A stretch of DNA of 10,545 bases from a virus (Duplodnaviria; Heunggongvirae; Uroviricota; Caudoviricetes). Within the stretch, counting starts at the first letter, position 1. Every line of letters starts with the position of its first letter. The notes under the pieces are model-generated. The model did not search any database. It worked only from the letters and a program-made list of their open reading frames with translations, and had not been told where the DNA came from. Location: IMG/VR virus record IMGVR_UViG_2909303794_000003. One strand, 5' to 3'. Below are positions 1-10,545 of this stretch, piece by piece. The translations under genes and the position numbers were made by a program.

Positions 1-378
1 ATGACCGTATCAAAACGTGGCCGTGTGCCAAAAACAATCAAAGAAGCCGTACAAGAGCAGTTCAGTCGCATGGGGGAAAGCTACTATGCGAACATCAAGT
101 GGGCGAAATCAGTTAATGCCCATTACTTCAAGGTCATTCGGGAATCGGATCAGCCAGAACCGATTTTCTACACCTTCTCAGTAATTGATGAAGAGATACA
201 TTATACATATTTTGACGTGAACACCTTTGAAGCAACTCAGCTATCGTTAGCTTGCTCAGAGGATGCGTTCTTTCAATTCATGTTTAGGTGTGATCTACCG
301 TTAGACTTCGATGCATTTACCGAAATTATGCGTTTGATCTCATTGCATGGATTAGATGTCACTGCCTTTTATAAATAA
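1..378 (+). CDS. hypothetical protein (125 aa)
   Basis: ORF from the track, ATG at position 1 and stop TAA 376-378. It begins at the window edge, so the true start could lie upstream. No recognisable catalytic or binding motif. No AGTACT sites inside it. Confidence 0.45.
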   Translation: MTVSKRGRVPKTIKEAVQEQFSRMGESYYANIKWAKSVNAHYFKVIRESDQPEPIFYTFSVIDEEIHYTYFDVNTFEATQLSLACSEDAFFQFMFRCDLPLDFDAFTEIMRLISLHGLDVTAFYK

Positions 379-445
379 GACATTATATCAACTCCTATTT
401 TTGTTAGTCGTGATAAATAAGACTGTAAAAATAGGAGGGTTGATT

Positions 446-625
446 ATGACTTGGCTCAGTAATGTACTCATTGAAGTACTCGCAACTATAATTTATATGT
501 TTGTGCTATTTCCATGTTGGATAGTACTGCATCTTTGTTTTATGGTTTTGGTAGTATTACTGCTACCATTTAAGATTCCAGCTATAAATAGATATGTAAT
601 GACAAAGATGAAACGCCAAAAATAA
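446..625 (+). CDS. small hydrophobic membrane protein (59 aa), two predicted TM helices, basic C-terminal tail
   Basis: Track ORF 356..625, but ATG 446 is preferred because a consensus Shine-Dalgarno AGGAGG (433-438) sits 7 nt upstream. Product MTWLSNVLIEVLATIIYMFVLFPCWIVLHLCFMVLVVLLLPF... is almost entirely hydrophobic and ends RYVMTKMKRQK. Confidence 0.5.
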   Translation: MTWLSNVLIEVLATIIYMFVLFPCWIVLHLCFMVLVVLLLPFKIPAINRYVMTKMKRQK

Positions 626-628
626 ATA

Positions 629-637
629 TGGTATAAT
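629..637 (+). promoter_or_regulatory. candidate sigma70 extended -10 element TGgTATAAT, with a second TATAAT at 643-648
   Basis: Exact TGnTATAAT in the intergenic region between the 59-aa ORF and the RHH-like ORF. No convincing -35, which extended -10 promoters do not need. Sequence only. Confidence 0.3.
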
Positions 638-663
638 ATCACTATAATTCCTCCAATAATTTG

Positions 664-687
664 CCCCAATTATTTGGGGTGCTTTTT
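664..687 (+). terminator. candidate intrinsic terminator or attenuator hairpin
   Basis: CCCCAA (664-669), loop TTAT, TTGGGG (674-679), then TGC and TTTTT (683-687). The T-run is offset 3 nt from the stem, so this is a weaker-than-canonical terminator. Confidence 0.35.
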
Positions 688-729
688 GTGTGGAAGAAAA
701 TCAGAAAAGTTTAACAAAAGGATATTGTT

Positions 730-882
730 ATGAAAGAAAAGAAAACGATTAGTGTTGGAGTGAGATTAAATCCTACACAAGAAGAAATACTAAAATCACT
801 TATAGAATGTGGTAAGGCTACTACGATTAGTTCAGCCATTCAGTATCTGATACATCAGTATGCGATTTTAGGTAGCAAGTAA
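730..882 (+). CDS. small ribbon-helix-helix-like DNA-binding protein (50 aa), putative regulator
   Basis: ORF below the track size cutoff, found by reading: ATG 730, SD AAGGA (718-722) 7 nt upstream, stop TAA 880-882. Product MKEKKTISVGVRLNPTQEEILKSLIECGKATTISSAIQYLIHQYAILGSK has a short N-terminal beta-strand segment (ISVGVRL) followed by two helical segments, the pattern of CopG/Arc/MetJ-type RHH proteins. Fold assignment is inference. Confidence 0.4.
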   Translation: MKEKKTISVGVRLNPTQEEILKSLIECGKATTISSAIQYLIHQYAILGSK

Positions 883-906
883 GGGTTTGGTACTTTCACT
901 TTAGAA

Positions 907-923
907 AAGTACTGGCAGTACTT
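907..923. promoter_or_regulatory. 17-bp perfect palindrome AAGTACTGGCAGTACTT flanked by further GTACTT half-sites (888-893, 932-937); candidate operator
   Basis: Perfect 8-1-8 inverted repeat read directly. It lies 25 bp downstream of the RHH-like gene and 69 bp upstream of the IS2 left end. No T-run follows, so it is not a terminator. Confidence 0.35.
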
Positions 924-991
924 CAGGATGAAGTACTTATTTTCAAGGAAGAAATATGAAGAAGGAAAAAAGAAATGACCTAAAAGGTCAG

Positions 992-1032
992 TAGACTGGC
1001 CCCCTGAATCTCCAGACAACCAATATCACTTA
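992..1032. repeat. IS2 left terminal inverted repeat (IRL), about 41 bp
   Basis: Imperfect inverted match to the right end (shared CTGG..CC..T.T.TCCAGACA.C...TATCACTTAA core). Extent follows established IS2 knowledge. Confidence 0.7.
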
Positions 1033-1082
1033 AATAAGTGATAGTCTTAATACTAGTTTTTAGACTAGTCATTGGAGAGCAG

Positions 1083-1448
1083 ATGATTGATGTCTTAGGA
1101 CCGGAGAAACGCAGACGGCGTACTACACAGGAAAAGATCGCTATTGTTCAGCAGAGCTTTGAACCGGGAATGACGGTCTCCCTTGTTGCCCGGCAACACG
1201 GTGTGGCAGCCAGCCAGTTATTTCTCTGGCGCAAGCAATACCAGGAGGGAAGTCTTACTGCTGTGGCCGCAGGAGAGCAGGTCGTTCCTGCCTCTGAACT
1301 TGCTGCTGCCATGAAGCAGATTAAAGAACTCCAGCGCCTGCTCGGCAAAAAAACGATGGAAAATGAACTCCTTAAAGAAGCCGTTGAATACGGGCGTGCA
1401 AAAAAGTGGATAGCGCACGCGCCCTTATTGCCCGGGGATGGGGAGTAA
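1083..1448 (+). CDS. insC: IS2 transposase OrfA (InsC), 121 aa
   Basis: Product [56 protein letters not shown]... is recognised as IS2 InsC. The track ORF starts at an upstream GTG (1038); ATG 1083 is the known start. Confidence 0.9.
1400..1406 (+). other. A AAA AAG slippery heptamer for programmed -1 ribosomal frameshifting (InsC to InsCD fusion)
   Basis: A6G lies in the InsC frame (gcA AAA AAG) exactly where the InsD frame, which is -1 relative to InsC, opens at 1406. This is the standard IS3-family OrfAB arrangement. Confidence 0.6.
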
Positions 1449-2311
1449 GCTTAGTCAGCCGTTGTCTCCGGGTGTCGCGTGCGCAGTTGCACGTAATTCT
1501 CAGACGAACCGATGACTGGAAAGATGGTCGCCGCAGCCGTCACTCAGATGATACGGATGTGCTTCTCCGTATACACCATGTTATCGGAGAGCTGCCCACG
1601 TATGGTTATCGTCGGGTATGGGCGCTGCTTCGCAGACAGGCCGAACTTGATGGTATGCCTGCGATCAATGCCAAACGTGTTTACCGGATCATGCGCCAGA
1701 ATGCGCTGTTGCTTGAGCGAAAAACCGCTGTACCGCTATCGAAACGGGCACATACTGGCAAAGTGGCCGTGAAAGAAAGCAATCAACGATGGTGCTCTGA
1801 CGGGTTCGAGTTCCGCTGTGATAACGGAGAAAAACTGCGAGTCACGTTCGCGCTGGACTGCTGTGACCGTGAGGCACTGCACTGGGCAGTCACTACGGGC
1901 GGCTTCGACAGTGAAACAGTACAGGACGTCATGCTGGGAGCGGTGGAACGCCGCTTCGGCAACGAGCTTCCGGCGTCTCCAGTAGAGTGGCTGACGGATA
2001 ATGGTTCATGCTACCGGGCTAATGAAACACGGCAGTTTGCCCGGATATTGGGGCTTGAACCGAAGAACACGGCGGTGCGGAGTCCGGAGAGTAACGGCAT
2101 AGCAGAGAGCTTCGTGAAAACGATAAAGCGTGACTACATCAGTATCATGCCTAAACCAGACGGGTTAACGGCAGCAAAGAACCTTGCAGAGGCGTTCGAG
2201 CATTATAACGAATGGCATCCGCATAGTGCACTGGGTTATCGCTCGCCACGGGAATATCTACGGCAGCGGGCCAGTAATGGGTTAAGTGATAACAGGTGTC
2301 TGGAAATATAG
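1406..2311 (+). CDS. insD: IS2 transposase OrfB (InsD), DDE catalytic domain, 301 aa
   Basis: Product ...[37 protein letters not shown]...[50 protein letters not shown]... is recognised as IS2 InsD. Expressed mainly as the InsCD frameshift fusion. Confidence 0.9.
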
Positions 2312-2322
2312 GGGCAAATCCA
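2282..2322. repeat. IS2 right terminal inverted repeat (IRR), about 41 bp
   Basis: ...TTAAGTGATAACAGGTGTCTGGAAATATAGGGGCAAATCCA at the element end. Confidence 0.7.
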
Positions 2323-2356
2323 ACTTGCTTTAGGGGGCTTCCTTAAAGATGCACAG

Positions 2357-2628
2357 ATGAATATTACACTCGTTATCCTGAATCCCTATAACAGTACTGT
2401 ATTGTACTCCATGCTGATGTTCTCAGGATTTGTTGATTACATTCAGGCAGTAGCCGATCCAAATGAAAAAACGAATGAAATGACAGTTTACGTGAATAGC
2501 ATTTATAAGAAGCTGGACAGACAGCCACCACTAATTGCTGCCAATTCAGTATATCAATCTCTCTATAAAGGGGATGAATACTTTAGTTTATTAGGACAGG
2601 TGAATCAGGATCAAACGTGGAGATACAA

Positions 2629-2632
<4 letters not shown>
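2357..2632 (+). CDS. hypothetical phage protein (91 aa), first gene after IS2; possibly a 5'-truncated remnant
   Basis: Track ORF. ATG 2357 has only a weak SD and lies 35 bp from the IS2 right end. Its stop overlaps the start of the next gene (ATGA at 2629-2632), indicating translational coupling into the tail module. The product has no recognisable motif. Confidence 0.4.
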
Positions 2633-6220
<3,588 letters not shown>

Positions 6221-6221
<1 letters not shown>

Positions 6222-6520
6222 TGGCACAGGGTTTACAATGCTGGGATGCATCTGGACGATTAATTGTCGATATTGGTGATTACAACATGCGGTACATGGG
6301 ATCAGTCAATCTTAATGTATCGGCTGGTAGTACTACATCATGGAATGTAGCCTGGTCGGGTATGCGTCCAACGGGTTGGTTGGCAGTAATGCGAGTGAGT
6401 CAGTACTGGAATGAGTTTTACTGTATTCCGGGTACTAACGCTTTCACCGTTCAATATCTTCCAGTGAGTGGCGTTTATGCCCAAACATTAACATTCGATA
6501 TATACAAATATGACGTGTAA
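6221..6520 (+). CDS. hypothetical protein (99 aa), one copy of a repeated ~100-aa domain; likely tail-fibre or receptor-binding accessory
   Basis: Track ORF 6215..6520 starts at a GTG; ATG 6221 overlaps the J stop (TAATG), indicating coupling. It shares the motifs G-x-Q-x-[WY]-[DN]-[AS]-[SA]-G-x-L and C-[IF]-PG with both halves of the next ORF. Confidence 0.55.
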
Positions 6521-6528
6521 GGATCACT

Positions 6529-7176
6529 ATGTCAGGTTTTCAGGTTTACAATTCAGCAGGTGCTCTTACGATAGATTCCGATAATAAATCGGTCGTAATG
6601 AGTTCCGTTAAAGCAATGGGCACACTCTCAGATACAGGGTATTACCTCATTAACAGTGCTTTTGGTAATGGAAGTACGTTGGGGTATCTGCCTCTAAATT
6701 TCTTCCCCAATACGGGACTACGCTGGTTCCAGCTACAGACAAATGGAAAGTACTGTTTTCCCGGCTCGGCAATGTTCGAGGCAGGTTCAGGGCGGTTCAT
6801 GCTCTCCAGTAATACCACGGCTCTTACATCGGGCTATCTCGATGTGTATAACAGTGCTGGAACATTGATCTGGTCTGCTGCCAGTGCGGGTACAATGCCA
6901 CGTATTCAGGGTTTCCTTACCGTGCCATCCTCTCATGATCTCGGTACTGCCTTGACGCTTACGACGAGTTTTGCCGATCCGTGGATATGCATTAGTCAGT
7001 GTCCGGGCAACATATCCGATGATGGCGGCACAGTTGGCTATTCCGGCATTCTCATTAAAAGGAATAGCAGTACTTCATTCTCTTTACAGTATGTGAATAA
7101 GAACCAGAAGGCATATCGACAGGCAATGGGGAACAGCGGATTTCAAATTGCTTTAGCAAGTTTCACTGGTTATTGA
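6529..7176 (+). CDS. hypothetical protein (215 aa), tandem duplication of the same ~100-aa domain
   Basis: SD AAGGA 9 nt upstream of ATG 6529. Internal repeats GFQVYNSAGALTIDSD (N-terminal half) and YLDVYNSAGTLIWSAAS (C-terminal half), plus YCFPGS versus QCPGN, parallel LQCWDASGRLIVDIGD and YCIPGT in the previous ORF. Confidence 0.6.
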   Translation: MSGFQVYNSAGALTIDSDNKSVVMSSVKAMGTLSDTGYYLINSAFGNGSTLGYLPLNFFPNTGLRWFQLQTNGKYCFPGSAMFEAGSGRFMLSSNTTALTSGYLDVYNSAGTLIWSAASAGTMPRIQGFLTVPSSHDLGTALTLTTSFADPWICISQCPGNISDDGGTVGYSGILIKRNSSTSFSLQYVNKNQKAYRQAMGNSGFQIALASFTGY

Positions 7177-7184
7177 TATAAATA
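7177..7184 (+). promoter_or_regulatory. TATAAATA motif (T4-late-promoter-like, or a sigma70 -10 variant) 30 bp upstream of the 7214 start
   Basis: Exact TATAAATA in the short intergenic gap, followed by SD TAAGG (7201-7205) and ATG 7214. The same exact octamer occurs at 370-377 and 583-590 on the same strand. Confidence 0.25.
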
Positions 7185-7213
7185 CTCATAATAACAATAA
7201 TAAGGCATAATGT

Positions 7214-7486
7214 ATGGATTTCGGTACTATTGTTGCTCTTGTTATCGCTGGCCTTGGTTTTCTTTATACGATATTCCGTGACAGTTCTTCTGATACTGAA
7301 GATTTACTCACGCGAGTTTCGCAAATTGAAGCAAAGATACAACTGCACAGTAGCAGTATAGACCGCCTCGAAACAGAGCAGGATGAAATGAAGAAGACAT
7401 TACGTAATCTCGAAGATCAAATTCATCAACTGGATTTGAAGATTGAGCGTATTCTGACAATTCTCGAAAAGACAAAAGGGGCATAA
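7214..7486 (+). CDS. membrane-anchored coiled-coil protein (90 aa); possibly lysis-associated (i-spanin-like or holin-like)
   Basis: One N-terminal TM segment (FGTIVALVIAGLGFLYTIF) followed by a heptad-like charged helix (QIEAKIQLHSSSIDRLETEQDEMKKTLRNLEDQIHQLDLKIERILTILEK). Sits next to the endolysin but on the opposite strand. Function is inferred from architecture only. Confidence 0.55.
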   Translation: MDFGTIVALVIAGLGFLYTIFRDSSSDTEDLLTRVSQIEAKIQLHSSSIDRLETEQDEMKKTLRNLEDQIHQLDLKIERILTILEKTKGA

Positions 7487-7503
7487 TGCCCCTTTGTTAT
7501 TTT
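7474..7503. terminator. bidirectional intrinsic terminator between convergent genes
   Basis: Stem GGGGC (7478-7482), loop ATAAT, GCCCC (7488-7492), followed by TTTGTTATTTT on the plus strand and preceded by AAAA (TTTT on the minus strand). It overlaps the stop codons of both convergent ORFs. Confidence 0.6.
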
Positions 7504-7940
7504 AATTGATTATTCATATCTCTTACCCGGTTTGGCGTTTGCCTGTACCATAATGAATCAACGGACTCACGCCGCACACCATCACGATCTCCCGCCTTTG
7601 CTGCTGCCAGTAGTTTTCTGAATTTACTTACGCCATTCACCCCTAACTGAAAAATCATGATGATCAGATAGTCCTCAATATCGGCAGGAAGAGTACCCAA
7701 ACGTAATGTACTTAATCCTGTCCGGGCAACTGCAATATCTTTATCAAGTAAAGTCTCTGCCTCATTCGGGGATAATCCAGTACTGAAAATTTCCCCTGAT
7801 TTGATTAAATGTCCATACCCGACAGTGCTGAATCCCAATGAGTCAGAGTATGGGAAGAACTTTCCATTACGGAAGTACCCCAATTTTGTCTGATAGGCAA
7901 TCGTGCCTTTATATTCCTTAAGTCTGCTTTTTAAATCCAT
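7497..7940 (-). CDS. endolysin, T4-type lysozyme (glycoside hydrolase family 24), soluble, no signal-arrest-release (SAR) domain
   Basis: PYSDSLGFSTVGYGH matches the phage lysozyme motif (P22 AYSDSRGIPTIGVGH, T4 YKDTEGYYTIGIGH). MIFQLGVNGVSKF and SLWYRQTPNRVRDM match T4 lysozyme MVFQMGETGVAGF and SRWYNQTPNRAKRV. No N-terminal hydrophobic segment. Confidence 0.85.
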   Translation of the reverse strand: MDLKSRLKEYKGTIAYQTKLGYFRNGKFFPYSDSLGFSTVGYGHLIKSGEIFSTGLSPNEAETLLDKDIAVARTGLSTLRLGTLPADIEDYLIIMIFQLGVNGVSKFRKLLAAAKAGDRDGVRRESVDSLWYRQTPNRVRDMNNQLK

Positions 7941-7981
7941 TCACTAAATACCTATATAAATTACATATGGGTATTTAGTGA
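7941..7981. promoter_or_regulatory. 12-bp perfect inverted repeat TCACTAAATACC / GGTATTTAGTGA around a 17-bp AT-rich spacer; candidate divergent promoter-operator
   Basis: Arms at 7941-7952 and 7970-7981. The spacer TATATAAATTACATATG contains TATAAATT. Each arm abuts the start codon of one of the two divergent genes (endolysin ATG ends at 7940 on the minus strand; plus-strand ATG at 7981). Confidence 0.4.
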
Positions 7982-8430
7982 TGAGAATTAATAACAACTG
8001 GACGATGTTCGAACCAGAACAATGGGATATCAAGGAAGTAAATGAAGGTCTGTACTGTTCATTTGTGTACTTAATTGAATTTCCCGAAACGGGGGAGTAC
8101 TACTTCGGGAAGAAGCAGATATATAAAGGTATCAAAGATATTTCAAACCTTAAGGGTACTTCAACGGAAAGCAACTGGCTGGATTATACGGGCAGCAGTA
8201 AAAGTGTAAATGCCATGATTGATTCAGGTATGGAGTACTCAAAAAGGATTCTGTACTGCTTTAAAACTGATGCTGAAGCCACTTTAATTGAAACTGCATT
8301 GATTAGCTATTACGGCTTACATCCCGACAATCTCAATAAAGCCATTCTGTGTAAATCCCGATTGCCAAAAAATCGAATTGAATTGTTCCGGGTGCTACAG
8401 AGTTTGATCGAAATGTTGGGCGTGAGGTAA
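7981..8430 (+). CDS. hypothetical protein (149 aa); weak GIY-YIG-like / T5orf172-like motif
   Basis: Track ORF 7978..8430 starts at a GTG; ATG 7981 is adjacent. GLYCSFVYLIEFPETGEYYFGKK resembles the G-[IVL]-Y ... Y-[IV]-G-K beta-hairpin of GIY-YIG-superfamily domains, but the spacing is longer than canonical and the downstream conserved Arg/Glu are not evident. Low-confidence motif call. Confidence 0.45.
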   Translation: MRINNNWTMFEPEQWDIKEVNEGLYCSFVYLIEFPETGEYYFGKKQIYKGIKDISNLKGTSTESNWLDYTGSSKSVNAMIDSGMEYSKRILYCFKTDAEATLIETALISYYGLHPDNLNKAILCKSRLPKNRIELFRVLQSLIEMLGVR

Positions 8431-8432
8431 AT

Positions 8433-9002
8433 ATGATTAGAGGCAGAATAACAGGGCTGAATAACGCAACAACCTATCTTAATACTACAGGTCAACGTCT
8501 TGGACGTGACTTTCAGAATGAAATAATCAAAAGGTCAAGGGCGTTATCAGCCAAAATGCAAATGGACTTAAACAATGCCGTCGATAAAGGAGCAGTACCT
8601 TTCACTCAGCGTTCCATTCTCTTTATGTACAAGAAAGTTGGTAATGGAGTTCGCAGTACTATTCTCGTGAAGGATCTACAAGCGAAGTACTTATATGACG
8701 TACTTGTTGAGGAAAAAGCCCTTGATAAGTTTGTACCAACGAGTAAGGCACGTCTTGATCGGTTCGGTAACATTGCAGGGTTGAAACGTAATCTATCAAA
8801 TGGGCGTTATAAGGTCATTAAAGGGAAGAATGGTAAAGAGCGATTGATTGATACCAGCCAGAAGAAGAAAGAAAAGCGAGTAATTGGATTACGTGAAAGT
8901 AAGAAACGTAAAATCATTTATGATTTCTATGCAGAAGCAGAGAAGGGGGCAAGACTTGTTCTCGCAGGGATACAGGGATCGTTTGTTATAAAAAAGGGAT
9001 AA
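8433..9002 (+). CDS. hypothetical basic protein (189 aa) with a Lys/Arg-rich C-terminal region
   Basis: SD GAGG 8 nt upstream; start is 3 nt after the previous stop. The C-terminal part (KGKNGKERLIDTSQKKKEKRVIGLRESKKRK) is strongly basic, suggesting nucleic-acid binding. The N-terminal 60 aa loosely resembles the HK97 gp10-like tail-component pattern (RAL...A...AVP...RS); unverified. Confidence 0.5.
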   Translation: MIRGRITGLNNATTYLNTTGQRLGRDFQNEIIKRSRALSAKMQMDLNNAVDKGAVPFTQRSILFMYKKVGNGVRSTILVKDLQAKYLYDVLVEEKALDKFVPTSKARLDRFGNIAGLKRNLSNGRYKVIKGKNGKERLIDTSQKKKEKRVIGLRESKKRKIIYDFYAEAEKGARLVLAGIQGSFVIKKG

Positions 9003-9003
9003 T

Positions 9004-9315
9004 ATGAATTTTGAAGAACACTATGGTGAACTTACGAGTGAGATAACGCTGAATGGTACTATACCAGATGGTAATAGTATGCCAATCAACAAGTGCTTTC
9101 TCGGAAAGAAGTTCCAGAAGCAATTGAAGAAAGCAGATATACAGATTGAGTGCTTTATGAATATCTGCTACGAGAAAAAACAAAGTTTTAAAGATGGTGA
9201 AGTACTCACATGGTCACTACAGGGTGATGAAATGGATGTGTACTTAATCGAAAGTAAAAGGTTATTTGTAAAGGGAAAGCACTTTTGGGGATATTGTGTG
9301 GGGATCATTGAATGA
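9004..9315 (+). CDS. hypothetical protein (103 aa)
   Basis: SD AAGGGA upstream; start is 2 nt after the previous stop; Cys-containing; no recognisable motif. Confidence 0.5.
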   Translation: MNFEEHYGELTSEITLNGTIPDGNSMPINKCFLGKKFQKQLKKADIQIECFMNICYEKKQSFKDGEVLTWSLQGDEMDVYLIESKRLFVKGKHFWGYCVGIIE

Positions 9316-9602
9316 TTGGAATGATAATTGATTTAATCAAAACTGGATTGGGCTTCTTCCAGAAAAAAGAACAAAGCAAACAGGAACTGGACGCACAGAA
9401 CAGTCACGAGCAGAACGAGATCACACTTGAAGAAACACGTAAGGGCTTCACGTGGCGACAGGGTTTAGGCTGGGTACTAACGTTCATCATTCTATGGAAC
9501 TACGTCATTGTGCCAGTACTGGCATTGTGTGGTGTAGTACTTCCCATAGTTCCACTTGATGAAATATGGAAAGTACTGATCATCTTAATCGGTGGGAGTT
9601 GA
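9312..9602 (+). CDS. small membrane protein (96 aa): hydrophilic N-terminal half, two C-terminal hydrophobic segments
   Basis: ATGA start/stop overlap with the previous gene. C-terminal GLGWVLTFIILWNYVIVPVLALCGVVLPIV and IWKVLIILIGG are predicted TM helices. The protein ends immediately after the last helix, unlike a typical holin with a charged C-terminal tail. Its 3' end overlaps the convergent minus-strand ORF by 18 bp. Confidence 0.5.
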   Translation: MIGMIIDLIKTGLGFFQKKEQSKQELDAQNSHEQNEITLEETRKGFTWRQGLGWVLTFIILWNYVIVPVLALCGVVLPIVPLDEIWKVLIILIGGS

Positions 9603-10283
9603 TTTTGTCTCTCTAAACAATACTCGCCATGAAGTAAGCCATGTTGAAGGGAGGATTTGGGTAAGTGCGAAGGCTGGTATGAAACTCAAATTATGAAATT
9701 CCCAATTCTTCTTGCGTGCCATACCACTTACATCTTGACATATGTTAATCATTTTATCGCTAATGATAATAAAGTTGTAGTAATGTGTTATACATTGTTC
9801 AAGTTCTTTAGACTTGTCTGGATGTACTTCAATGTTCCAAACTCGTAATATATCTAATTGCGATTTCAATTTAATCAGATGATCTTTATAATCAGCATGC
9901 AAGTCATTTACCTTAGAGTTTTTGCTTTGGTACTCTTTATCGGTGATGTTAAGATCTTTATTTCCTAACATTTCATACATATCATTGATATAAGTATGTA
10001 ATATTTCCGCCTTTACTTTCGCTTCAATAAAGTAACTGATATAAACGTTTGCTTGTTCAAAACCTTTTTCATTAAGTTTTGAATCTAACCATCTATAAAC
10101 TTTAAAAACTGTGATGAGTGCTATTACTGCCATTATAGTATCCATGATTGCTGATGTAGTAGAGCTATCATATCCATGAAGTAATAGTAAATCGGTGTAA
10201 ATTGGTATTAATGCACCAATAGCAAGACATGCAATATGTGAAAATCTTATTTCATTTCTGATTTTTTTTAAAATCACTTTCAA
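9585..10283 (-). CDS. two-TM membrane protein with a ~160-aa helical cytoplasmic domain (232 aa if the TTG start is used); unknown function, candidate exclusion or abortive-infection effector
   Basis: Track ORF with a TTG start at 10283 (GTG at 10277 is an alternative); AGGGA lies 4 nt upstream of the TTG; the first ATG is at codon 46. Two N-terminal hydrophobic helices (HIACLAIGALIPIYTDLLLL and IMDTIMAVIALITVFKVY). The region is markedly AT-rich (roughly 30% GC by eye) and has no AGTACT sites, unlike the phage backbone. Confidence 0.5.
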   Translation of the reverse strand: MKVILKKIRNEIRFSHIACLAIGALIPIYTDLLLLHGYDSSTTSAIMDTIMAVIALITVFKVYRWLDSKLNEKGFEQANVYISYFIEAKVKAEILHTYINDMYEMLGNKDLNITDKEYQSKNSKVNDLHADYKDHLIKLKSQLDILRVWNIEVHPDKSKELEQCITHYYNFIIISDKMINICQDVSGMARKKNWEFHNLSFIPAFALTQILPSTWLTSWRVLFRETKSTPTD

Positions 10284-10305
10284 AGCATCCCTATGAAATT
10301 ATTGG

Positions 10306-10330
10306 AAAGCCTGTATATAGCACAGGCTTT
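10306..10330. promoter_or_regulatory. 9-bp perfect inverted repeat AAAGCCTGT (7-nt loop) ACAGGCTTT in the gap between the two minus-strand genes
   Basis: Read directly. It lies between the stop of the 69-aa ORF (10336) and the start of the membrane-protein ORF (10283). On the minus-strand transcript it is not followed by a U-run, so an operator or RNA regulatory hairpin is more likely than a terminator. Confidence 0.35.
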
Positions 10331-10335
10331 TATTG

Positions 10336-10545
10336 TTACCAATCCCAATCAATAGTAGTATCCAAATCACGCAAGTTAGTATGTTCTGTGCGAGTCGCTA
10401 CGAGAACAACATCACCAGTTTCTTTCGAAACAATATCAAAAACTTCAATTTCCGTTTGGCCCATTGTACCTTTCGTTCTAAAACTCTTTCTGACGTAAGT
10501 GTATTTTTCTTTTGGATAATTACTTTCAAATAATGCTTCATTCAT
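10336..10545 (-). CDS. hypothetical small protein (at least 69 aa), upstream partner of the two-TM protein
   Basis: Track ORF. Its ATG is the last three bases of the window, so the real N-terminus and RBS cannot be confirmed and the gene may extend beyond the window. Product (…GQTEIEVFDIVSKETGDVVLVATRTEHTNLRDL…) looks like a real mixed-charge protein, unlike the low-complexity plus-strand ORF that overlaps it. Confidence 0.4.
   Translation of the reverse strand: MNEALFESNYPKEKYTYVRKSFRTKGTMGQTEIEVFDIVSKETGDVVLVATRTEHTNLRDLDTTIDWDW

Follow-up and report, generated by a model that had tools for sequence, protein, structure and literature searches.

An IS2 copy without a target-site duplication at the junction of a probable 22-23 kb deletion in a prophage between yeaG/prkA and mipA

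The IS2 copy described here most probably bounds a deletion that removed about 22-23 kb from the interior of a prophage, whichever route made it, and we put the probability of this reading at about 0.85. The DNA analysed, referred to as the window, is the whole stretch of 10,545 nucleotides from which the element was read. With IS2 counted in, about 15 kb of a dead prophage remain, since the packaging, head and tail-shaft genes have been lost. The sequence-only reading of the window had taken the missing target duplication as a sign of an IS-associated rearrangement and not of a simple insertion. In line with this view, the two sequences that abut the element lie 22-23 kb apart in intact relatives.

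The IS2 element and its missing duplication

The letters of the window were read directly and reveal an intact element that spans positions 992-2322, corresponding to 1331 bp. It begins at 992 with TAGACTGGCC (longer form TAGACTGGCCCCCTG) and ends at 2322 with GGCAAATCCA (longer form GGGGCAAATCCA). The element, its parts and its immediate flanks are as follows.

987..991, no strand: left 5-bp flank GTCAG, from the window letters and the control comparison
992..2322, plus strand: IS2 (IS3 family), with IRL on the left and IRR on the right, from similarity to E. coli genomes and phage records
992..1033, plus strand: IRL, imperfect inverted repeat, beginning with TAGACTGG
1083..1448, plus strand: IS2 orfA, 121 aa, intact, HTH_Tnp_1 at 1.8e-19
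1406..2311, plus strand: IS2 orfB, 301 aa, intact, rve integrase core at 8e-20 together with rve_3, DDE transposase domain
2282..2322, minus strand: IRR, right inverted repeat, ending with GGCAAATCCA (...AAATCCA)
2323..2327, no strand: right 5-bp flank ACTTG, from the window letters and the control comparison

Judged by length, identity, inverted repeats and the orfA/orfB pair, the element is IS2, and this assignment is not in doubt. The two reading frames overlap in the -1 frame arrangement expected of IS2, with an A-AAA-AAG (A6G) slippery site for the -1 frameshift at positions 1400-1406 in the orfA frame. The core of the inverted repeats (1001-1033) pairs with 2282-2314 at 79% complementarity, and IRL of IS2 is known to be 1 bp longer than IRR (PMC3299598). 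The G+C content of the element is 53% versus about 36-41% in the flanks. Among 5426 complete E. coli genomes, 4897 match the window, all of them through 992-2322 only and with at most 99.8% identity; the median number of IS2 places per complete genome is 4 and the maximum 41. The nearest IS2 copy, likewise from E. coli, carries 1 mismatch in 1331 positions (99.9% identity). Moreover, ten phage records match 992-2322, each of them with IS2. In the SfX record U82084, the copy is annotated as insertion sequence IS2 and is 95.5% identical to the window element.

Eight further IS2 copies served as controls; seven came from E. coli chromosomes or a P1-like phage, and the eighth from Shigella phage SfX. 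They were cut out with the same end sequences as the window element, which at the same time checks the placement of its boundaries. The termini of the window element are identical to those of the controls, each of which is 1331 bp in length, and a perfect 5-bp target duplication surrounds every one of them (8/8). In the window, GTCAG stands against ACTTG, and the element has no direct repeat. The control copies thus confirm what had been read from the letters, namely an intact IS2 of 1331 bp with no matching duplication. The catalytic centres of IS2 are 5 bp apart (PMC3299598). The duplication is a property of the insertion event and not of the element, and it is lacking here because one flank was replaced through the prophage deletion.

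Both junctions in the intact prophage

Relatives of the window were located by exact-protein look-ups, since nucleotide searches gave none. Megablast and blastn were run with the flanks against 50,697 phage records, 72,556 plasmids and 5,426 complete E. coli genomes, and no close DNA relative emerged; besides IS2, the same searches returned just about 80-180 bp of weak similarity to J genes. The look-ups, which reached many draft NCBI assemblies, identified the relatives as a prophage located between yeaG/prkA and mipA in E. coli-type chromosomes. The prophage integrates there by means of a 644-aa large serine recombinase, whose gene lies at its left end; the adjoining chromosome shows 99.9% identity to E. 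coli. The whole intact prophage is siphovirus-type and comprises ~36.6 kb. A literature search brought up nothing relevant on a prophage at yeaG/mipA or on AGTACT over-representation in phages.

The retained left arm contains the following features.

1..378, plus strand: 125-aa prophage gene, first gene of the retained left arm, no Pfam match
446..625, plus strand: small hydrophobic 59-aa ORF with a 12-bp lineage-specific deletion relative to other copies (63-67 aa)
730..882, plus strand: 50-aa prophage ORF, conserved, called at the equivalent position in seven other copies (L001-L007)
908..937, no strand: three clustered AGTACT palindromes just upstream of the truncated HNH-like gene
956..991, plus strand: start of an HNH-endonuclease-like gene, codons 1-12 (MKKEKRNDLKGQ) of a 166-aa gene

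The exact 125-aa protein is present in many NCBI assemblies beside the 644-aa large serine recombinase and yeaG/prkA, and its gene lies about 770 bp downstream of the recombinase gene in relatives. The 50-aa ORF (730-882) gave no family match in profile searches. Positions 1-991 of the window align to positions 10001-11003 of the relative locus L001 at 98.8%, and the alignment ends exactly at 991. In the relative the HNH-like gene is intact (L001 10968-11468), shares the first 12 residues and matches phrog_953/374 HNH endonuclease, whereas the frame in the window stops at a TAG that IS2 supplies with its opening three bases (992-994). The uninterrupted left site in relatives reads AAAGGTCAG followed by GCACTACC, or, in the form of other length, AAAGGTCAG followed by GCACTACCACG.

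On the right side, the element is followed by tail genes.

2323..2632, plus strand: 3' remnant of a 207-aa tail gene, comprising the last base of codon 105 and codons 106-207
2629..3033, plus strand: DUF6950 tail-associated protein, 134 aa, retained
3018..6221, plus strand: J-like central tail fibre / tail tip protein, 1067 aa, retained, phrog_31 at 9e-62, Pfam Phage_Tail_Tip

Here, the alignment of window 2323-10545 to the relative locus L008 (5795-14017, 99.93%) begins exactly at 2323. The remnant is 100% identical to residues 106-207 of the protein encoded at L008 5481-6104 and matches the tail protein profile phrog_2048 at positions 272-361 of 390 only. The first ORF to the right of IS2 had attracted attention by its weak start, and rightly so: the 91-aa ORF 2357-2632 is an internal-Met fragment of the 207-aa tail gene. 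The uninterrupted right site, seen in 9 independent relatives, reads GTGTAAGAGC followed by ACTTGCTTT, with GTGTAAGAGC followed by ACTTGCTTTAGGG as the form of other length. The element had been placed at the upstream boundary of the tail module; it does belong with this module, but it sits inside it and cuts a tail gene. Among species-representative genomes, the J-like protein finds matches only in a Buttiauxella MAG (95%) and in Phytobacter massiliensis (58%).

Two features of the right flank were considered and set aside. The sequence TTTAGGGGGCTTCC resembles the IS2 ends (AGGGGGC / TAGGGGC), as might be the case for an IR-like target, but the shared 7-mer is not significant and the idea was dropped. 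Likewise, another sample has an IS1 end at a distance of 7 bp from the right junction of IS2, which was rejected as unproven evidence of a target hot spot. Its proximity is an ascertainment effect, because the contig was found via the exact 91-aa ORF, which is callable only if the gene is broken inside a window of roughly 50-80 bp.

The sequence-only reading would have been refuted by a relative in which positions 991 and 2323 adjoin apart from a 5-bp duplication. The comparison with IS2-free relatives, which had been proposed for reconstructing the ancestral junction, shows the opposite, with 22,051 to about 23,254 bp between the two positions. The upper value derives from a close relative stitched from three loci (8450 + 9010 + 5794 = 23,254 bp), in which the IMG/VR contig L014, lying in one orientation, overlaps L001 at its end and L008 at its start. 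The lower value was obtained on one contig of a more distant relative, IMGVR_UViG_2690316316_000011. Strand and order of the two flanks match those of the intact prophage. Of the events that the sequence-only reading had considered, namely deletion, inversion or recombination, the collinearity of the flanks supports the deletion and excludes the inversion.

The missing DNA begins with the rest of the 166-aa HNH-like gene, after which come some ten genes without a known function and another HNH-like gene. These are followed by packaging and head genes (small and large terminase, head-tail joining protein, portal, protease-major-capsid fusion) and by genes for a 917-aa fibre-like protein, the major tail protein (Phage_tail_3) and two chaperone-sized ORFs. 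Next come an ORF of 739 aa at the place of the tape measure, a DUF6216 gene and the distal tail protein, and the last part consists of codons 1-105 of the 207-aa tail gene (phrog_2048). Hence, the tape measure and other tail genes whose absence upstream of the J-like gene had been remarked upon are present at that place in intact relatives. Both genes at the junction are truncated compared with their full-length counterparts in relatives, the left-hand one keeping 12 of 166 codons and the right-hand one codons 106-207 of 207. In other copies of the same prophage we observed IS1 ends, an IS66-family insertion and an IS-free deletion of about 31.8 kb, indicating that erosion of this prophage is recurrent.

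The hexamer AGTACT had been reported as enriched on both sides of IS2, and this enrichment proved to be real and stronger than stated. The window contains 32 sites versus 2.2 +/- 1.5 expected, spread over all three reading frames and none of them within IS2; AGTACT is the most frequent hexamer of the prophage flanks. In the intact prophage we counted 104 sites in 36.6 kb where about 9 are expected, an approximately tenfold excess, with a density of 2.2-3.4 per kb in every segment, the deleted part included. In contrast, about 12 kb of flanking chromosome contain essentially none of it. The density, about 3 per kb throughout the intact prophage, supports a common origin of both flanks. Together with their collinearity in the intact prophage, this upholds the earlier proposal that both flanks stem from one phage. 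The enrichment extends to distant relatives that share only 52-67% identity across the 917-aa fibre-like protein, or 58% across the J-like protein. Such a family-wide enrichment (~10-fold) could reflect DNA-level selection of an unexplained kind.

Possible routes to the deletion

Missing duplications classically result from recombination between two IS copies or from adjacent deletion (PMC11708052). We consider a transposase-mediated adjacent deletion from a single resident IS2 the more likely route, at about even odds. It would begin with an ordinary IS2 insertion at one of the two sites, accompanied by a 5-bp duplication. In a second event, the stretch between the resident IS2 and the other site would be lost, along with one copy of the duplication. 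In this event, a reactive IS2 end or an IRR-IRL junction may attack a site on the same molecule. IR-IR junction intermediates give intramolecular deletions, and reactive (IS2)2 tandem dimers are said to have been described by Szeverenyi et al. 1996. For IS30, one study describes IR-IR junctions as reactive intermediates that go on to attack target DNA (PMC9333248). IS2 itself follows a copy-out-paste-in pathway in which IRR is the exclusive donor in step I and IRL the recipient only (PMC3299598). Because IRR is the only donor end in this step, an original insertion in the HNH-like gene, with the duplication GTCAG and the loss on the IRR side, is weakly favoured.

The preference for adjacent deletion draws on base rates borrowed from IS150 and not from the IS2 locus in the window. 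In three populations of the E. coli long-term evolution experiment (LTEE), 14 of 83 IS events were adjacent deletions by IS150, an IS3-family element, that lacked a duplication (Ngan et al. 2024, PMC11708052). In all 14 cases the IS was already at its position, and the deletions often grew stepwise (PMC11708052). Taking the IS150 ratio of 14 deletions to 69 insertions and a prophage that makes up 0.7% of the genome, a rough comparison favours adjacent deletion a few-fold over two insertions in the same orientation followed by RecA recombination, unless the IS2 copy number is high.

The closest rival is a sub-route of the same deletion, in which RecA would recombine two direct IS2 copies, one at the GTCAG site in the HNH-like gene and one at the ACTTG site in the 207-aa tail gene, looping out 22-23 kb and one IS2 and leaving behind a hybrid copy that has one flank from each insertion. 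We regard this as a substantial possibility that nevertheless falls short of an even chance. It predicts exactly the final structure that is seen, and recombination of this kind is a standard source of missing duplications (PMC11708052). Moreover, IS2 is multi-copy in E. coli, as outlined above (median 4, up to 41 places per genome), and other copies reside in prophage genes, with several of the E. coli matches located inside tail fibre genes. However, it requires that IS2 inserted twice, in the same orientation, into a single 36-kb prophage of a rare lineage, and the IS150 rates, rough as they are, modestly favour the single-copy deletion unless IS2 copies are many.

Furthermore, no prophage copy with IS2 at either site was found in IMG/VR, in metagenome contigs or in the intact loci. 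The queries for these precursors combined IRR with GTCAGGCACTACC in metagenome and viral contigs, and GAGCACTTG with IRL in viral contigs. The corresponding junction strings are GGCAAATCCA followed by GTCAGGCACTACC for an insertion in the HNH-like gene and GTAAGAGCACTTG followed by TAGACTGGCC for an insertion in the tail gene. The exact search in IMG/VR and metagenome contigs returned no precursor junction, a result of little weight, as the lineage is represented by one other sample; none of the intact prophage loci holds an IS2. A 15-base left-flank pattern used in IMG/VR is too short, its hits being chance matches apart from the locus L084.

It appears improbable that the junction is an assembly artefact, in which the 1.3-kb repeat was collapsed and its outer flanks joined, while the real genome holds two IS2 copies or the junctions come from mixed strains. 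IS2 is indeed a multi-copy repeat, and the only other assembly of the lineage breaks about 139 bp inside IS2 on both sides. This second, independent assembly (ENA ERZ27308828, MEGAHIT k141) contains both IS2 junctions. In its contig k141_65849, which matches window 1-1130 at 100% identity, yeaK/yeaJ/yeaI-region genes, yeaH, prkA and the recombinase lead into IS2, whereas contig k141_30391 is 99.98% identical to window 2183-10545 and leads from IS2 to mipA. As both contigs end inside IS2, they bear out each junction along with its native chromosomal neighbours; the link through one IS2 copy is seen only in the window. There, the element is full-length, uninterrupted and continuous with both flanks, and both junctions agree between the two assemblies. 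Even if the repeat had been collapsed, the junctions would still exist, and the structure would then be the immediate forerunner of the deletion. The lineage is sparsely represented: the exact 59-aa protein of the left arm occurs on a single contig in the whole collection (k141_65849 of ERZ27308828), which marks the window lineage as rare, and the 91-aa fragment occurs on three.

Still less probable is a one-step event, in which IS2 was captured at the broken ends of the 22-23 kb deletion and never had any duplication. Capture at breaks without duplication has been proposed for IS5 and IS481 (Ngan et al. 2024, PMC11708052), so that the hypothesis is already in the literature, and no intermediate was seen in IMG/VR and metagenome contigs. 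Yet a pre-existing IS followed by adjacent deletion explains all 14 IS150 deletions (PMC11708052), and nothing at the locus demands a new mechanism, given that intermediates are expected to be missed in a sparsely sampled lineage. If true, it would provide a natural example for a copy-out-paste-in element of the IS3 family.

Finally, an inversion between oppositely oriented IS2 copies, or a simple insertion whose duplication decayed or was overlooked, was an a priori possibility in the sequence-only reading and has a negligible chance of being correct, since 22-23 kb separate the flanks in intact relatives, 8/8 controls bear out where the boundaries were placed, and the flanks retain the strand and order of the intact prophage.

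Meaning of the remnant and comparison with known systems

Taken together, the region is a dead remnant and not a compact phage or satellite, and the value of the finding lies mainly in annotation. The regulatory-type genes found beside a J-like tail gene are a scar and do not reflect genome architecture. The rearrangement is an already known phenomenon, a textbook IS-bounded deletion in a decaying prophage, and it adds one further natural IS3-family copy without duplication at a large deletion to a phenomenon that has been documented experimentally. The reconstructed uninterrupted prophage is unrepresented among deposited phages. The AGTACT enrichment is the more unusual and more interesting lead and is separate from the IS2 deletion.

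The window copy shares with IS2 of E. coli and Shigella the length of 1331 bp, the inverted repeats, the A6G frameshift and the HTH_Tnp_1 and rve domains. It differs from the E. coli and Shigella control copies, which keep their 5-bp target duplication, in that it has none, one flank having been replaced through the deletion. Unlike the grounded prophages of E. coli and Shigella that are eroded by IS elements, the window prophage has nothing closely related to it in 50,697 deposited phage records or in 5,426 complete E. coli genomes; as in those prophages, packaging, head and tail-shaft genes were lost to an IS-bounded deletion. For the IS150 deletions of the LTEE the earlier state, the IS alone, is documented, whereas the route at the IS2 locus is inferred from the end product. 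In both systems, an IS3-family element is found at the junction of a multi-kb deletion, with no duplication and with one original and one new flank (PMC11708052).

Over-representation of the AGTACT palindrome

In this prophage group, the palindrome AGTACT is over-represented approximately 10-14 fold relative to expectation. The window contains 32 copies (2.2 expected), and the 36.6-kb intact prophage, stitched together from loci of uninterrupted relatives (L001, L014 and L008), contains 104 (~9 expected). In addition, we observed 20 copies of CAGTACTG, where ~0.5 would be expected, and zero occurrences of GGTACC. The AGTACT-rich regions comprise window 1-991 and 2323-10545, L001 7297-20378, L014 and L008 1-15400, and the enrichment is likewise present in further loci (L016-L018, L139, L141 and L142). 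No AGTACT site was found in IS2, and the chromosomal flanks of the prophage are essentially devoid of the motif. Since the sites in the window fall in all three reading frames, the enrichment argues for selection acting on the DNA itself. Distant relatives, among them a Phytobacter prophage, retain it. A literature search on AGTACT over-representation in phages yielded no relevant report and no explanation.

Further rearrangements of the prophage

One locus (L002 11249-11253, GCA_021916655.1), compared with L001 11253 and L008 14604, revealed an independent deletion of ~31.8 kb that occurred without an IS element and removed almost the entire prophage. It begins in the HNH-like gene that IS2 truncates, ~250 bp further downstream than the IS2 site, and its junction falls in the 5-bp microhomology AGTAC, a half-site of the enriched AGTACT motif.

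Moreover, several prophage copies are interrupted by other IS elements. An IS1 end disrupts the DUF6950 gene in L011 (1-57; equivalent to window ~2783), and an element of the IS66 family (TnpA/TnpB/DDE_Tnp_IS66) is located at L010 12677-15212 and in L152, equivalent to window ~9205. This recurrent IS erosion suggests that the hosts are IS-rich, for instance Shigella-like lineages. A further IS1 end (…GTAAGTTGGCAGCATCACC) is fused to the 207-aa tail gene in L013 1-40 (Logan ERR11506691), at a point equivalent to window ~2330; the right junction of IS2 lies just 7 bp upstream of it. Because the exact 91-aa fragment of this gene served as bait for that contig, the proximity of the two elements is probably an ascertainment effect, though it may reflect a local IS target preference in the tail gene.

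In the early region, about ten assemblies all end at a single point (the L006 contig end; L001 12607-12673), where L003 and L001 also differ in length by 64 bp. The common break together with this length change suggests a variable tandem repeat.

Integration site and distribution

The prophage, which encodes a 644-aa large serine recombinase as its integration enzyme, resides between yeaG/prkA and mipA (L001, L003 and L143 1-9231; L008 15400-20648). Among draft assemblies it turned up in hundreds of index blocks, but neither the 5,426 complete E. coli genomes of RefSeq nor the deposited phage records contained it. The left flank of L003, which spans the chromosomal genes and the recombinase and reaches approximately L001 12665, shares only ~94-95% identity with other hosts, whereas the remaining prophage is 99.9% identical. 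The pattern suggests that the prophage has spread recently and horizontally across divergent Escherichia lineages, or that L003 has a recombinant left end. Relatives are carried by a Buttiauxella MAG and by Phytobacter.

Gene content of the retained right arm

Features of the retained right arm (window 7978-8430, plus strand; 7497-7940, minus strand; 9585-10283, minus strand)
SegE-like GIY-YIG homing-endonuclease gene, adjoining an oppositely oriented lysozyme gene
232-aa ORF, minus strand, 30% G+C, function unknown

The 232-aa ORF resembles a moron. Besides the SegE-like gene, the intact prophage contains two HNH-like genes, and this load of homing-endonuclease-like genes is unusually high for a 36-kb temperate phage.
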